Shown here: positions 56,035 to 63,615 of the stretch, piece after piece
Layout: each line of letters opens with the position of its first letter
Position numbering within the stretch: the first letter of the stretch is position 1
NCBI GenBank assembly: GCA_963704165.1
Contig: CAVPHD010000012.1
Coordinates: 96,001 to 160,000 of the forward strand
Origin: an uncultured delta proteobacterium
GTDB taxonomy: Bacteria > Myxococcota_A > UBA9160 > SZUA-336
DNA length: 64,000 bases
Direction of reading: 5' to 3'
The notes under the pieces: model-generated
What the model was told of the DNA's origin: nothing
Seen by the model: the letters and a program-made list of their open reading frames with translations, nothing else
Databases searched by the model: none
Translations under genes and position numbers: made by a program

Positions 56035-56910
56035 ATGGAGCCGGAACGCTCGTTCGAGATCGGTCCGGGCGACGCGGGCCGCCGCCTCGACGTCGTCGTG
56101 GCGCGCGTTCTCGGGCTCTCGCGCGGGTGGGTGCGCAAGCTGCTCGAATCCGAGCGGGTGCGGCTCGACGGCCGGCCGGCGACGAAGGGCGCGATCCTGC
56201 GCGCGGGTGACCGCATCGACGTGCTCGAGTTCGCGCGTCCCGACGCCGGCCCGATCGCAAACGCCGAACTCGCGGTGACGGTCGTTCGCGAGACGGCGGA
56301 CCTGGTCGCGATCGACAAACCGCCGGGCCTCGCCGTGCACCCGCTCGATCCGGACGAGACCCACACCGCGCTGAACGCGCTGGTCGCGCGCCACCCGGAG
56401 ATGGTCGGCGTGGGCGAGGGGGGCCTGCGCTCGGGCGTGGTCCACCGCCTCGATCCGGGCACGTCGGGCGTGCTCGTCTTCGCGAAGCACGAGCGCGCCT
56501 GGGTCGAAGCGCGTCGGGCCTTCACCGAGAGGCGCGTTTCGAAACGCTACGTCGCGCGAGTGCACGGCGCGTTCGCGGGCAAGCGCGACATCGAGCTCAG
56601 GCTCGAGAATCGCGGCACGCACGTTCGCGTCGTCGCGCACGGCGGGCGGCTGGCCTCGTCGCACATCCGTGCTCTCGAGACCGGGTCGGAGACGAGCCTC
56701 GTCGAGATCGCGATGCACACCGGTGTCCGGCACCAGATCCGCGCCAGCCTGGCCGAGCTCGGCCATCCGGTCGTCGGCGATCGGCTCTACGGCTCGAGCG
56801 CCGAGCTCGACCGGCACTGGCTGCACGCGGTCGCCGTCGCCTGGGACGATTTCGCGGCCGAAGCCGCGCCGCCGAGAGAGCTCAGACCCGCTCGAACCGC
56901 CGCAGTGTGA
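56035..56910 (+). CDS. RluA/RluD-family pseudouridine synthase with S4 domain
   Basis: DKPPGLAVHP, HRLDPGTSG, TGVRHQIR, GDRLYG. Confidence 0.92.
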   Translation: MEPERSFEIGPGDAGRRLDVVVARVLGLSRGWVRKLLESERVRLDGRPATKGAILRAGDRIDVLEFARPDAGPIANAELAVTVVRETADLVAIDKPPGLAVHPLDPDETHTALNALVARHPEMVGVGEGGLRSGVVHRLDPGTSGVLVFAKHERAWVEARRAFTERRVSKRYVARVHGAFAGKRDIELRLENRGTHVRVVAHGGRLASSHIRALETGSETSLVEIAMHTGVRHQIRASLAELGHPVVGDRLYGSSAELDRHWLHAVAVAWDDFAAEAAPPRELRPARTAAV

Positions 56911-57559
56911 GCAACACCGCTCGCGCGATCACGAGCACGAGCGCCGCGCCGAGCACCGGCGTGAGCAGGTGGCCGATCGTCTGGTGGAGCTCGTCCGGGT
57001 AGGCGCAGCCGAGAATTCCCGGCTGCGTGAGCCCCCCGAGCGGCGCCGCGGCGCCGACCGCGATCGCGACGGCCAGCTGGCGCGGCACCGCGCGCGAAGC
57101 GAAGCGCGCGAAGAGCAGCGCCGGGAGTACCGCGGGCAGGACCGCGTGGAGCGAACACGTGACGGTCGCAGCGAGCCAGCCGGGCGCGAGCGACGCCGCA
57201 CCAGGCCAGCCGGCGATCCGCACGGCGGCGATCCCTGCCAGCGCGGCGAGTGCGAGCGCGAGCGCGATCACACCCGACCGGGCGAGTCGCTCGCGTCCGG
57301 GCACACAGACGCCGAGCGCAAACACGAGCGCACCCGAGAACAGCAGCGCGTGCACCGCGATCGTCCACGCATCGAGGCCGCCGAAGTCGGGCTTCGGCCA
57401 CGGCGCCGGGCCGATCCACGCGAAGACGATCTGCGCCGCGACGAGCGCGAACGTCAAGCCCGCGATGCTCGCGGCGACGCGGCCCAGACGCGGCAGTCGC
57501 CGGACCGGCTGCAACTCCCGGGTGAGACTCCGGATCAGCACCTCGGTGCGCTCAGGCAT
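56882..57559 (-). CDS. NrsF/DUF1109-like membrane anti-sigma factor
   Basis: LIRSLTRELQPVRRL start, about six TM helices, Cys in VTC and LGCAYPDELHQTIGH; overlaps the ECF gene end. Confidence 0.75.
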   Translation of the reverse strand: MPERTEVLIRSLTRELQPVRRLPRLGRVAASIAGLTFALVAAQIVFAWIGPAPWPKPDFGGLDAWTIAVHALLFSGALVFALGVCVPGRERLARSGVIALALALAALAGIAAVRIAGWPGAASLAPGWLAATVTCSLHAVLPAVLPALLFARFASRAVPRQLAVAIAVGAAAPLGGLTQPGILGCAYPDELHQTIGHLLTPVLGAALVLVIARAVLLTLRRFERV

Positions 57560-58130
57560 CGCGCTCGCGACCTCCGAGCAACCCACGCAGGGCCTTGTAG
57601 CCGCGATGGGCTCGCACCTTGAGCGCGCTCACCGTCACCCCGACGCGTTCCGCCGCCTCGGCCACGGAGAGCTCGCGCACGTGGATCAGCAGGACGGCCT
57701 CGCGTTGGGAGGCGGGAAGCTCGGCGAGCGCGCGCTCCATCCGCTCCGAAAGCGGAGCCTCCATTCGCGATGGCTCGCGCTCGTCGGCGAGCAGGTCGGC
57801 GTCGGGCAGGGCCGCCTCGCGCTCGGCTTGCTTGCCGCGCGCGCGAAACGCGTCGACGACCGCGTTGCGCGCGATCGTGCGGAGCCACGGGCCGAAGGGC
57901 CGGCTCGGCTCGTACGTATGGCGGGCACGGTGGAGAGAGAGCAGCACGTTCTGAACCACGTCCTCCGTCGCGGAGGCATCGCGAAGCCGCAGATCGACGA
58001 ACACGCGCAGCGCAGGAACGATCTCGTTCAGCAGCGCCGCATAGGCCGCCGCATCCCCATCCTGGGCGGCGGCCATCCAGCGGCCCCAAGCGACTTCCCG
58101 ACGGGCGGCGCCGTCGCGTCGTCCACTCAT
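57552..58130 (-). CDS. ECF RNA polymerase sigma factor (SigF/ECF16-like)
   Basis: MAAAQDGDAAAYAALL, EDVVQNVLLSLHRARHTYEPSRPFGPWL, LKVRAHRGYKAL. Confidence 0.9.
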   Translation of the reverse strand: MSGRRDGAARREVAWGRWMAAAQDGDAAAYAALLNEIVPALRVFVDLRLRDASATEDVVQNVLLSLHRARHTYEPSRPFGPWLRTIARNAVVDAFRARGKQAEREAALPDADLLADEREPSRMEAPLSERMERALAELPASQREAVLLIHVRELSVAEAAERVGVTVSALKVRAHRGYKALRGLLGGRERDA

Positions 58131-58186: not shown

Positions 58187-59161
58187 TCACGGGGTGATGA
58201 TCACCTTGCCGTAGCTGCCGCGGGAGCCGAGCGCCTCGAGGGCCTTGGGAACCTCGTCGAGGGAGTAGGTGCCGAAGATCAGCGGCCGCACGTGGCCCGT
58301 CCCGTACAGCTTCGCGAGGTCGGCAAAGATCTCCGGGATCCGCTCGGGCTGGTGGATCGCGTACGCCCCCCAGTGCAGTCCGACGACGGCGATGTTCTTG
58401 AGCAGGATCCGGTTGGTCTTGACCTCGGGGATCGTTCCGCCGGCGAAGCCGATCACGAGCAGTCGGCCGTTCCAGGCGATGCACTTCATCGAGCCCTCGA
58501 AGATCTCGCCTCCGACGGGATCGTAGATCACGTCGGCGCCCTTTCCGGCGGTCGCCTCCTTCACCGCCTCGACCCAATTGCCGACCGAGTAGTCGATCGC
58601 GAGATCCGCGCCCGCGCGCCTTGCGACATCGAGCTTGTCGGCGCTGCCGGCCGTCGCGATCACGCGCGCGCCGAGCGCCTTGCCGATCTGCACCGCTGCG
58701 ACGCCGACACCGCCGGCCGCGGCGTGCACGAGCAGGGTTTCGCCCGCGCGCAGGTTCGCCCGATCGACGAGCGCGGCGTACGAGGTCGGGTAGACGACCG
58801 GAAACGCCGCAGCCTCGGGAAAGCTCATCGCGTCCGGCATCGCGTGCAGCGACGCCACCGGCAACGCGACGCGCTCGGCGAATGCTCCGAGCGCCAGCCC
58901 CGCGAAGACGCGATCCCCGATCGCGACTCCGCTCACGTCCGGACCGAGCTCTCGAACCACGCCGGCGACCTCGGCCCCTGGCGTGAAGGGGAACGCCGGC
59001 TTCATCTGGTATCTGCCCTGCACGAGCAGGATGTCGAAGAAGTTGCAGCCGGCGGCTTCGACGTCGATCACGACCTGGTTCGCGCGCGGCACCGGATCGG
59101 GCAGCTCGCGAACGACGAGATCCTTCGGCTCCGTCCAGCGATCGACGACGACGGCTCGCAT
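58187..59161 (-). CDS. NADPH:quinone oxidoreductase (zeta-crystallin/MDR family)
   Basis: PFTPGAEVAG, HAAAGGVG, YDPVGG, GRLLVIGFAGG. Confidence 0.92.
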   Translation of the reverse strand: MRAVVVDRWTEPKDLVVRELPDPVPRANQVVIDVEAAGCNFFDILLVQGRYQMKPAFPFTPGAEVAGVVRELGPDVSGVAIGDRVFAGLALGAFAERVALPVASLHAMPDAMSFPEAAAFPVVYPTSYAALVDRANLRAGETLLVHAAAGGVGVAAVQIGKALGARVIATAGSADKLDVARRAGADLAIDYSVGNWVEAVKEATAGKGADVIYDPVGGEIFEGSMKCIAWNGRLLVIGFAGGTIPEVKTNRILLKNIAVVGLHWGAYAIHQPERIPEIFADLAKLYGTGHVRPLIFGTYSLDEVPKALEALGSRGSYGKVIITP

Positions 59162-59230
59162 GCTCTCCTCCCGGGGGCCGCTCGCGCGGCTCGCCGAGTC
59201 TAACACCGCGACGCTGCGCTTAAATGCGAA

Positions 59231-59256
59231 CGCCGGCCGGGTCGATCCGGCCGGCG
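59231..59256 (-). terminator. GC-rich hairpin downstream of the histone gene (probable intrinsic terminator)
   Basis: CGCCGGCCGG / CCGGCCGGCG 10-bp stem followed by TTCGCATTTA on the minus strand. Confidence 0.55.
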
Positions 59257-59281
59257 AGCGTAGTCGGGGCGGAAACCCCGA

Positions 59282-59491
59282 TCAGACGTCCTGCGGGCGC
59301 AGCGTCTTGCGACCGTTGGCTCCGGCGCGGGCTTCGGCCTGCGCGATCACCGATCGCACGTGAGCCTCGAGCGCACCGTAGAACTCGCTTCCGACGTTGC
59401 ACTTCTTCGCCGCCGCCTTGACGCGCGACTTCGAGATGATCATCGAATCGCCGCCCTTCTTCGCGGCGCCCGCCTTCTTCTTCGCTGCCAT
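59282..59491 (-). CDS. Bacterial histone-fold protein (face-to-face/DUF1931-like) with Lys-rich N-terminal tail
   Basis: MAAKKKAGAAKKGGDSMIISKSRVKAAAKKCNVGSEFYGALEAHVRSVIAQAEARAGANGRKTLRPQDV; GGGGAG RBS; histone-fold pattern ending A..RA..NGRKTLRPQD. Confidence 0.85.
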   Translation of the reverse strand: MAAKKKAGAAKKGGDSMIISKSRVKAAAKKCNVGSEFYGALEAHVRSVIAQAEARAGANGRKTLRPQDV

Positions 59492-59570
59492 TTCAAGCTC
59501 CCCGTTTTCGCGACCGCCGATCGTGCGCGAGCGCGGATTCGTGTCTGGGCCGAACATTCGGCACAGGGCG

Positions 59571-59598
59571 CAAATAGCACGCGGCCTTTCGAAAGCAA
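59571..59598 (-). promoter_or_regulatory. Predicted sigma70 promoter of the histone gene
   Basis: TTGCTT-N16-TATTTG with extended TG. Confidence 0.4.
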
Positions 59599-59630
59599 GG
59601 GGATTGCGGGTTTCCGGCTAGACTCCGGAA

Positions 59631-60440
59631 GTGCGATCGATTCGGTGGACGACGATTCTGTTCTCGATCTTCGCGTTCGTCGCGGCGTCGGCGCATGCGC
59701 GCGATGGCGGCGTGGACGGAAACTGGAGCAAGCGTCGCTCGAGCCACTTCGAGCTCTTCCAGGACGTCGCGCTCGAACGCTACTCGGGGCGAGATGGCTC
59801 GCGCGCCTTCGAGATCTCCCTGCTCGCCGCGCTCGAGTCGGCGCACGATCGCGTCCGCGACGGCATCGGCGTCGAGCCGCGCGCCCGTGTGCGCGTCTTC
59901 GTCTACGACCCGGACGTCTTCGACGCCTCGTATTCGGCGCGCTTCGGTTTTCGCGCGGCGGGTTTCTGGGACGGTGCGATCCACGTGCGCGGCGGAACGG
60001 CCGTCGACGCGAGGATCGTCGGAACGCTCGTTCACGAATACGTGCACGCCGCGCTCGCATCCCTGGCTCCCGCTGGAATCTGGCCGGCGTGGTTGAACGA
60101 AGGGCTCGCCGAGCACTTCGAACGCGAGGCTCTCGGCATCGTTCGACTCGGCGCGCACGAACGTGCGGAGATCCGAGCTGCGATCGCGCGCGGGCGCTGG
60201 CTTCCGCTCGAAGCTCTCGGTGGTCCCTCGTTCGCCGGGCTCGACGAGTCGTCGGCGCGGATCGCCTATCTCGAGTCCTACGCGTGTGTCGAAATGATTC
60301 TGCGCCGCTACGGCCGCGAACGGATCGAACGGCTCGTCGAAGAGCACGCGAAGGCCCGCCGGATCGAGCGCGCACTCCAGCGCGCGTTGCGCACCGACCT
60401 CGCGAAGCTCGAGGCGCAGCTCCTCGCCGAGCTCGACTGA
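59631..60440 (+). CDS. Exported peptidase MA-clan (gluzincin-like) metalloprotein
   Basis: Signal peptide ending AHA; HEYVH...PAWLNEGLAEHFE; AYLES. Confidence 0.85.
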   Translation: MRSIRWTTILFSIFAFVAASAHARDGGVDGNWSKRRSSHFELFQDVALERYSGRDGSRAFEISLLAALESAHDRVRDGIGVEPRARVRVFVYDPDVFDASYSARFGFRAAGFWDGAIHVRGGTAVDARIVGTLVHEYVHAALASLAPAGIWPAWLNEGLAEHFEREALGIVRLGAHERAEIRAAIARGRWLPLEALGGPSFAGLDESSARIAYLESYACVEMILRRYGRERIERLVEEHAKARRIERALQRALRTDLAKLEAQLLAELD

Positions 60441-62480: not shown

Positions 62481-62813
62481 CTACTTCGAAGCGGGCGCGG
62501 CGGGCACTTCCTCGAGCTCCTCGGGAAGCACGCCGTCGGGAACGCCCGAGGGGCGCACGGACGGATCCGGGTGCCATTGACCCTCGAGCGGGTAGTTGTA
62601 GCCGCTCGTGTTCAAGACGATCGACCTGTTGTCGGGGTTGGCTCGCGGCACCTGCGGCTTCGCGGTCGCGGACCTCTTGATCACGACCGGCGCCGGACAC
62701 TGGCTCTGCGCCGCGGCACCGTCCGCACCCGAGTCCGCGTGACCGACGATCGCCACGCCGCCGGTCGTGAAGACCAGCGTCAGGGCGACGAGCGAGAGAC
62801 CGAGCCAACGCAT
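62481..62813 (-). CDS. Hypothetical secreted protein
   Basis: AGGAGG RBS; signal peptide; IVLNTSGYNY motif; Pro-rich tail. Confidence 0.6.
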   Translation of the reverse strand: MRWLGLSLVALTLVFTTGGVAIVGHADSGADGAAAQSQCPAPVVIKRSATAKPQVPRANPDNRSIVLNTSGYNYPLEGQWHPDPSVRPSGVPDGVLPEELEEVPAAPASK

Positions 62814-62883
62814 GCCCTCCTGGATCGGCGAAGTCCGTTTGCGACTTGAGCGCCACGGGCCGCGCGCGTACGTTGCGCGCTCG

Positions 62884-63615
62884 ATGCCCGCGAAGGAGAG
62901 CCCGCTCGAGCGCCTGGAACGCGAGATCCCCGCGTGCTCGGAGTGCCCGCGCCTCGCGGACTTCCTGGCCGATCTGCGCACGCGTCATCCCGAGTATTGG
63001 AATCGGCCGGTGCCCGGCTTCGGCGACCACTCCGCGACGCTCGCGATCGTCGGCCTCGCCCCGGGACTGCACGGTGCGAATCGCTCGGGCCGACCCTTCT
63101 TCCTCGACGCCTCGGGTGAATGGCTCTACGGAGAACTCGCACGTCGGCGGCTCTGGGACGGTGAGCGACTCGATGGTGTGTACATCGTGAACGCGGTGAA
63201 GTGCCTCCCGCCGGGAAACCGGCCGAGCTCCGACGAACAGACGCGCTGCCGGCCCTGGCTCGAGCGCGAACTCGGTTTGCTCGAACGCGTGCAGGTGGTG
63301 CTCGCGCTCGGCCGGATCGCGCACGAGGCCGTGCTTCGTAGCTGGCGCGTGCGTCCGCTCGCCCGCCATCCGTTCGCGCACGGACGCGTCGCGCGGGTGC
63401 CGGACCGGCCCACCCTCGTCTCGAGCTATCACCCCTCGAGACAGAACACGAACACGGGCGTGCTCACGCGCGCGATGTGGCGGGAGGTGTTCGCACGCGC
63501 GCTGCGAGTTGCCGCGAAGCGAAGAACGTCCACAGGATCACGGGCAGAATCCCCGCCGCGGCCGTCCGGTGCAGACCCTCGACGAAGCCGAGCGAGATCA
63601 GAAAGGGACGCGTGA
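62884..63615 (+). CDS. Uracil-DNA glycosylase, family 5 (UdgB-like, Fe-S)
   Basis: CSECPRL, YWNRPVPGFG, GLAPGLHGANRSGRPF, NAVKCLPPGNRP, SYHPSRQNTNTG. Confidence 0.9.
   Translation: MPAKESPLERLEREIPACSECPRLADFLADLRTRHPEYWNRPVPGFGDHSATLAIVGLAPGLHGANRSGRPFFLDASGEWLYGELARRRLWDGERLDGVYIVNAVKCLPPGNRPSSDEQTRCRPWLERELGLLERVQVVLALGRIAHEAVLRSWRVRPLARHPFAHGRVARVPDRPTLVSSYHPSRQNTNTGVLTRAMWREVFARALRVAAKRRTSTGSRAESPPRPSGADPRRSRARSERDA

Follow-up and report, generated by a model that had tools for sequence, protein, structure and literature searches.

A tailed face-to-face histone in a class of Myxococcota and the complementary distribution of HU-like genes

The 69-residue protein encoded on the minus strand at 59282..59491 of the window, the whole 64,000-nucleotide stretch of DNA analysed here, is by its sequence a face-to-face (FtF), alpha3-truncated histone. 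As a protein it is an unremarkable representative of a family known from the literature, where its kind of tail has also been described. What appears to be new is that FtF histone and HU-like genes show a complementary distribution within its class of Myxococcota; passages of PMC11390915 are silent on this pattern, which the supplement of that paper may cover. We consider it likely that the FtF histone closes into a four-subunit ring, wraps about 60 bp and acts as the main DNA packer of its lineage, replacing HU.

The gene and the histone class of its product

The features of the histone gene and of its surroundings are as follows.

59282..59491, minus strand: FtF histone gene, 69 aa, identified from its sequence, PDB profile matches, Foldseek and an AlphaFold2 monomer
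59285..59443, minus strand: alpha3-truncated histone core (residues 17-69), with K25, R55, N59, R61, T63, D68 and the C-terminal V69
59444..59491, minus strand: basic Lys/Ala/Gly tail (residues 1-16), predicted to be disordered
59498..59501, minus strand: Shine-Dalgarno (SD) site GGAG
59571..59598, minus strand: candidate sigma-70-like promoter, TTGCTT-16 nt-TATTTG, a pattern shared with relative loci
59231..59281, minus strand: two GC-rich hairpins past the stop, the second followed by a weak U-tract; possible terminator
58187..59161, minus strand: downstream neighbour, zinc-type alcohol dehydrogenase/quinone oxidoreductase (Pfam ADH_N, ADH_zinc_N); synteny marker
59631..60440, plus strand: divergent upstream neighbour, peptidase MA family (Pfam Peptidase_MA_2); synteny marker
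56882-58130, minus strand: ECF sigma factor (Pfam Sigma70_r2, r4_2), then a 234-aa membrane-type protein with no Pfam match

The open reading frame starts with an ATG at 59491 and ends with a TGA at 59282; its sequence is the one given in a preliminary description of this DNA, which had left the strand unstated. The good ribosome-binding site reported there was confirmed as GGAG at 59501-59498, with a spacing of 6 nt to the ATG, and SD-like sites are found at the tail start in relatives too. An in-frame ATG at 59557, which would extend the reading to 91 aa, was rejected as the start since it lacks an SD-like site and relatives do not share it. Out of 531 candidate homologs 527 were confirmed, and, as 56 of 61 related genomes also contain a match, a chance ORF is excluded. 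Pfam and NCBIfam gave no significant match for the 69-aa protein alone, and the gene was a correct catch of one that small-ORF annotation would easily miss, as had been anticipated.

The candidate promoter of the preliminary description can be kept as a lead only, because its pattern, which 21 of 30 relative loci carry upstream while shuffled sequences give a mean of 0.4, was written after the sequences had been seen and the 30 loci are kin. A consensus scan of positions 58500-60300 returned neither a sigma-70 promoter nor a terminator, and it therefore missed both this element and the downstream structure. The latter, announced as one hairpin, was found by folding to comprise two (59281-59264 and about 59256-59231; −41.8 kcal/mol, z = −2.65, 2 of 200 shuffles as good), and similar hairpins were recognised by eye in relatives. 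The codon usage of the gene, at the 61st percentile on a weak proxy by which ribosomal genes range from 17 to 96, does not mark it as highly expressed. No functional link between the histone and its neighbour genes was seen, and the neighbours differ outside family f1. The 234-aa membrane-type protein is likely the anti-sigma factor of the adjoining ECF sigma factor; in 7 of 30 loci the sigma gene is again found close to the histone. An ordinary uracil-DNA glycosylase family gene lies at 62767-63615 (plus strand) of the window.

The histone fold proposed in the preliminary description was recovered by sequence and structure searches. With phmmer, the protein matched HTkC (PDB 9F2C) at E = 3e-6. 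A profile of 61 homologs gave six matches in the PDB: HTkC 9F2C (E = 7.6e-11), HLp 9QT0 (1e-5), HBb (0.083 and 0.096), HmvA (0.086) and HMfB (0.19); five of them are named histones or histone-fold proteins, and the sixth, HmvA, is a DNA-binding protein. Foldseek ranked HTkC and HLp chains in positions 1 to 4 with a best E of 0.014, and no match reached E = 0.001; among the 61 homologs, 16 gave a weak match to PF00808 (E up to 0.1). In the AlphaFold2 monomer, whose mean pLDDT is 71, helices span residues 21-30 and 35-58 and nothing past residue 58 is helical, and the chain ends one residue beyond D68, in agreement with the earlier statement that a full helix 3 is missing. From the loop-1 Gly/Ser to RKT there are 27 residues, where the full-length histone encoded elsewhere in this genome has 31. 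The protein thus shows the features of alpha3 histones, namely an alpha3 of just 3-4 residues and an alpha2 reduced by 4-5 residues; the full-length alpha2 and 10-residue alpha3 of nucleosomal histones (HMf, H3/H4) were not found.

The FtF signature published for the Haloferax FtF histone comprises K11, R41, N45, R47, T49, D54 and the terminal residue 55 (PMC11390915), and K25, R55, N59, R61, T63, D68 and V69 reproduce it at a constant offset of +14. The first six of these residues are invariant in 61 aligned homologs, and the signature Arg, the Asn and the single residue after the Asp occur in all 91 distinct loci (110 loci minus duplicates, the remaining ones being still related to each other). 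The RxTxxxxD motif and the helix-1 lysine K16 typical of FtF histones correspond to R61, T63, D68 and K25. Likewise, the tetramer residues R48 and N52, with the C-terminal carboxyl beside D61, have their counterparts in R55, N59, D68 and V69. R55 aligns with R45 of HTkC, whose change to Ala gives dimers (10.64898/2025.12.06.692711). Since the published signature is conserved and the bacterial dimer histones lack R48 and N52 (PMC11390915), both of which are present here, we assigned the protein to the FtF class; the toroidal homotetramer that defines this class is likely formed, to judge from these residues.

The preliminary description had related the protein both to the FtF class and to Bdellovibrio Bd0055; the first relationship stands, with all the tetramer residues in place, and the second, to a dimer type with a weaker HBb match, does not. 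A dimer of the Bd0055/HBb type would bend or coat DNA instead of wrapping it. This alternative shares the alpha3-truncated fold and draws on the weak PDB matches to HBb (E = 0.08-0.1), but the Arg/Asn pair missing from bacterial dimers is present in 91 of 91 loci, and true HBb-type genes exist separately in the class, in all 11 genomes of family f5, which makes it highly improbable. As an FtF histone, the protein would close into a ring of four subunits, on the model of HLp and HTkC. By analogy with HLp (PMC12701072) and HTkC, both shown to wrap about 60 bp, the tetramer would wrap a similar length of DNA, with no sequence preference as in HLp, and its four tails would probably add non-specific electrostatic contact with the DNA.

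The lysine-rich N-terminal tail

The 16-residue tail with five Lys claimed in the preliminary description was confirmed, and in the AlphaFold2 monomer pLDDT falls below 50 over residues 1-4 and 6-16. A start at the internal Met17, which would leave the protein tail-less and which that description had raised, was rejected: of the 91 distinct loci, 63 have Leu and 28 have Met immediately before the core, so the tail is translated. A basic tail was present in 89 of these loci, 86 of them recognised by a script and 3 on visual reading, and absent from 2. The called tails are 9 to 37 aa long with a median of 16, consist of about 31% Lys, 28% Ala and 12% Gly (computed before de-duplication), and start with MAAKK in 44 and with MAARK in 12 of 86 cases. 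In the survey of tail conservation suggested earlier, the basic tail is kept while its length and sequence vary. Two FtF homologs from Planctomycetota (L085 and L108) have basic tails of more than 45 residues, and two others, L086 and L105, are entirely tail-less.

The preliminary description regarded the tail as unusual, eukaryote-like and modifiable, and none of these attributes was supported here. Tails are common on bacterial FtF histones, most of them positively charged and with no conserved sequence, according to passages of PMC11390915; the earlier surprise is understandable because prokaryotic histone tails are still described as generally absent in part of a recent paper (Hu et al. 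2025, PMC12701072).

The tails of H3 and H4 contain the motifs ART, RTKQ, ARKS, SGRGK, GRGK and KAARK. None of these six motifs was detected in the 86 tails, and KGG appeared in 7. The conserved sequence context around modified lysines that characterises eukaryote-type tails was not found in tails of such variable length, and similar N-termini occur on other proteins, including HU-like ones. In genome G000, which carries the window, 10 of 10,023 SD-preceded starts, the histone included, have at least 5 Lys within the first 16 residues. Among the non-histone proteins of this genome with MAAKKK- or MGAKKK-type ends are a 135-aa helical protein and a SnoaL-fold protein; the following were located.

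L155:941-1348, minus strand: sll1863-like helical protein with a MAAKKK-type basic N-terminus
L156:1036-1629, minus strand: SnoaL-fold protein with an N-terminus of this type
G000:C2 near 28,300, minus strand: third such protein, with no annotation

These observations suggest a generic basic extension, comparable to the Lys/Ala stretches that some HU proteins carry, rather than a coded tail of the eukaryotic type. The titles and abstract openings covered by our literature search, with most subscription papers outside its scope, included none on the function or modification of a tail in a bacterial histone.

The other reading of the tail is that it serves the FtF tetramer as a regulated platform, on which acetylated or methylated Lys would be read, perhaps by the ZZ-finger histone that is also encoded in G000.

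G000:C3, L154:1519-2040, minus strand: ZZ-type (ZZ-finger) histone, 173 aa, with Cys/His at positions 12, 15, 28, 33, 43, 47, 51 and 57

Seven of the eight Cys/His ligands of this protein have the spacing of D0LYE7, and a histone domain matching it is found in 48 of the 61 class genomes, in most cases within a longer frame, with the ZZ part observed in two of them, G000 and G020. This wide occurrence, the retention of the tail with its recurrent first residues, and the acetylation reported for Asgard histone tails (10.64898/2026.07.02.735847, seen in part) are compatible with such a platform. However, the length and sequence of the tail vary freely around no H3/H4 motif, similar tails are present on unrelated proteins, and no modifying enzyme was identified among the seven window neighbours scanned. 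Furthermore, passages of PMC11390915 state that the ZZ binding-pocket residues are not conserved in bacteria and judge tail reading unlikely, and the ZZ-type match persists in the two genomes, G015 and G032, that have HU-like genes and no FtF histone. A role as modification platform is thus quite unlikely, and we continue to regard the tail as a generic basic extension.

Distribution of FtF histone and HU-like genes

An FtF match was obtained in 56 of the 61 genomes of the class, with one strong copy in each, and in 45 of the 46 high-quality genomes. In a phylum-wide sample the gene was found in 27 of 28 class genomes, and, outside the class, 5 of 123 genomes gave weaker matches. Among the best 80 of 407 confirmed records, the closest named ones bear Myxococcota or Deltaproteobacteria titles, and the next ones belong to Planctomycetota, Eisenbacteria, Latescibacterota and Methylomirabilota, at roughly 60-78% identity; 68 pattern matches in viral contigs included none that was confirmed as a histone. 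The five class genomes with no match are G004, G015, G030, G031 and G032. G004 was rejected as a case of loss, given that its contig ends inside the histone gene, and the absence in G030 and G031 is uninterpretable at 58% and 73% completeness (G000 itself is 84% complete).

Both PF00216 genes of G000 code for IHF subunits, over the NCBIfam cut-offs, and a six-frame scan of the whole genome with a profile of nine HU-like proteins revealed nothing besides these two genes. The 61 class genomes contain 121 PF00216 matches, of which 58 are IHF alpha and 59 IHF beta (over cut-offs), and the four others are all located in G015 and G032. Consequently, none of the 56 histone-matching genomes has an HU-like gene, their PF00216 genes being IHF alpha or beta only; direct searches with a divergent and with a more typical HU-like query gave no further HU-like genes in the 61 genomes. 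G015 and G032 belong to different families and are among the four genomes with no trace of the histone, a coincidence with a nominal p of 0.003 when relatedness is ignored. The four genes score 42-60 bits with PF00216 but match the HU and IHF models of NCBIfam marginally or not at all; because they pass PF00216 and no NCBIfam HU cut-off, HU-like is our own probable label for them.

In G015 the histone gene is cleanly deleted: 131 nt, free of N, separate the dehydrogenase and peptidase genes, versus 469 nt in the window. Next to the dehydrogenase lies an HU-like gene whose product has a 43-residue tail with 19 Lys/Arg, and the second HU-like gene of this genome also begins with a MAARKK-type tail.

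L162:52-471 and L161:1896-2252, minus strand: the two HU-like genes of G015, whose products have long N-terminal tails of Lys/Arg/Ala; one of them is one gene away from the deletion site

Finding such a tail attached to an HU-like protein speaks for a portable module that grips DNA and against a forerunner of the eukaryotic histone code. G032 is the only high-quality class genome with no FtF match, and has two short-tailed HU-like genes (L163 and L164). The histone is missing there beside the gene that flanks it in G039, of the same family, but a clean loss is not established because the region is rearranged, the assembly consists of 820 contigs and the search left out 11,484 bases. For its HU-like genes, transfer or misbinning is possible because the local GC content is 53%, versus 58% at the long-histone locus of this genome.

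The exclusivity of FtF histone and HU-like genes in the class rests on two apparent events, and it does not hold across phyla. Outside the class, at least three PF00216 genes are present in 112 of the 123 phylum genomes, and in the five of these inspected by eye two genes are IHF subunits and the third is non-IHF. Ten genomes were checked for coexistence of FtF and HU: the five Planctomycetota that have a close FtF homolog all retain a gene whose best score is to an HU model, below its cut-off, for which reason a general exclusivity was rejected, and the other five were mixed or ambiguous.

As related histone-bearing bacteria have no HU, the histone likely does HU's job, and the histone-based chromatin suggested in the preliminary description becomes plausible in that the class genomes with a histone have no HU-like gene. 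By analogy with the proposal made for Leptospira, which has no HU according to passages of PMC12701072, the FtF histone would be the bulk nucleoid packer where HU is missing. An alternative is that it is one minor component of a chromatin packed by IHF and two other histones, the HU pattern being a matter of lineage history. This would fit the three histone-fold genes and both IHF subunits of G000, the unremarkable codon bias (a weak proxy), the coexistence of FtF and HU-like genes in the five Planctomycetota and the fact that related genomes are not independent. On the other hand, the histone-lacking genomes G015 and G032, the only ones with HU-like genes, come from different families, and among the three histones the FtF one is retained in the largest number of genomes (56 of 61, versus 48 for the ZZ-type and 46 for the long one). 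We consider this alternative unlikely and maintain that the FtF histone is the main packer.

The long histone, the remaining member of the set, is encoded as follows.

G000:C4:271336-271548, L111:1498-1710, plus strand: second histone, 70 aa, archaeal in length, tail-less and with a complete helix 3 (PF00808 49.7 bits, PF00125 44.4 bits)

Its best PDB match is the archaeal histone HPhA, and its helix 2 is of archaeal length. Phe, His and Leu of HPhA correspond to Ser, Arg and Lys in this protein, at positions that we take to be the archaeal stacking interface. The long histone was found in 46 of 61 class genomes and in none of the 123 outside the class. Nucleosomal histones were described as exclusively archaeal in 2024 (PMC11390915), and a bacterial histone of archaeal length is absent from passages of that paper, whose supplement may cover it. 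The 11 genomes of family f5 have no long histone and all carry a stand-alone Bd0055/HBb-type histone (L142-L146), a swap that is one evolutionary event. An obligate heterodimer of the FtF and long histones was set aside, since f5 keeps the first without the second and G015 and G032 keep the second without the first. At G039:C87:5585-5971 (plus strand), two tandem HBb-like histone domains lie in one 247-codon open frame, possibly a doublet.

Tentatively, the whole class might have swapped HU for a three-histone chromatin, made of the tailed FtF bulk packer, the archaeal-length singlet (an HBb-type dimer in one family) and the ZZ-finger histone. The exchange would be reversible, with FtF-losing lineages regaining an HU-like protein, once with the same kind of basic tail; in its strongest form, this possible scenario has the ZZ histone reading the FtF tail, and it would amount, if true, to a bacterial histone reader system.

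The way in which bacterial histones cooperate with nucleoid proteins or take their place is listed as an open question in passages of Hu et al. (2025; PMC12701072). The complementary genes in one class, with two apparent reversals, are comparative evidence for substitution, and they raise the testable question of whether the histone is able to replace HU and whether the tail is needed for it. The titles and abstract openings covered, with most subscription papers outside the scope, included none on HU loss in this class.

Comparison with known systems

Like eukaryotic and Asgard histone tails, the tail described here is basic, disordered and N-terminal, but none of the six motifs above was found in it and it sits on a different histone class. 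In archaea, histone abundance and other chromatin proteins were reported, in the part of the source seen, to be mutually exclusive (10.64898/2026.07.02.735847). Bd0055/HBb (PDB 8CMP, 8FVX) shares the alpha3-truncated fold, the SK motif in helix 1 and the RKT..D loop, whereas it has no tetramer Arg/Asn and is a much weaker match. The tailed FtF histones of Schwab et al. (2024), as presented in passages of PMC11390915, resemble this one in their Myxococcota and Planctomycetota hosts and in the positive tails that most of them carry.

HTkC of Thermococcus kodakarensis (PDB 9F2C) is the best match in sequence and fold, with 43-45% core identity and the tetramer arginine conserved; in contrast, it is 59 aa long with no tail, has Glu at the position of N59 and acts beside nucleosomal histones. 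HLp of Leptospira perolatii (PDB 9QT0-9QT2), as described in passages of PMC12701072, likewise has a truncated alpha3, a short alpha2 and a host with no HU, and its R49, N53, R55, D62 and terminal residue 63 correspond to R55, N59, R61, D68 and V69. With 63 aa, HLp has a shorter N-terminus, whose first six residues are unresolved, in place of the 16-aa Lys-rich tail, and Leptospira has one histone, whereas the genome studied here combines three histone-fold genes with IHF.
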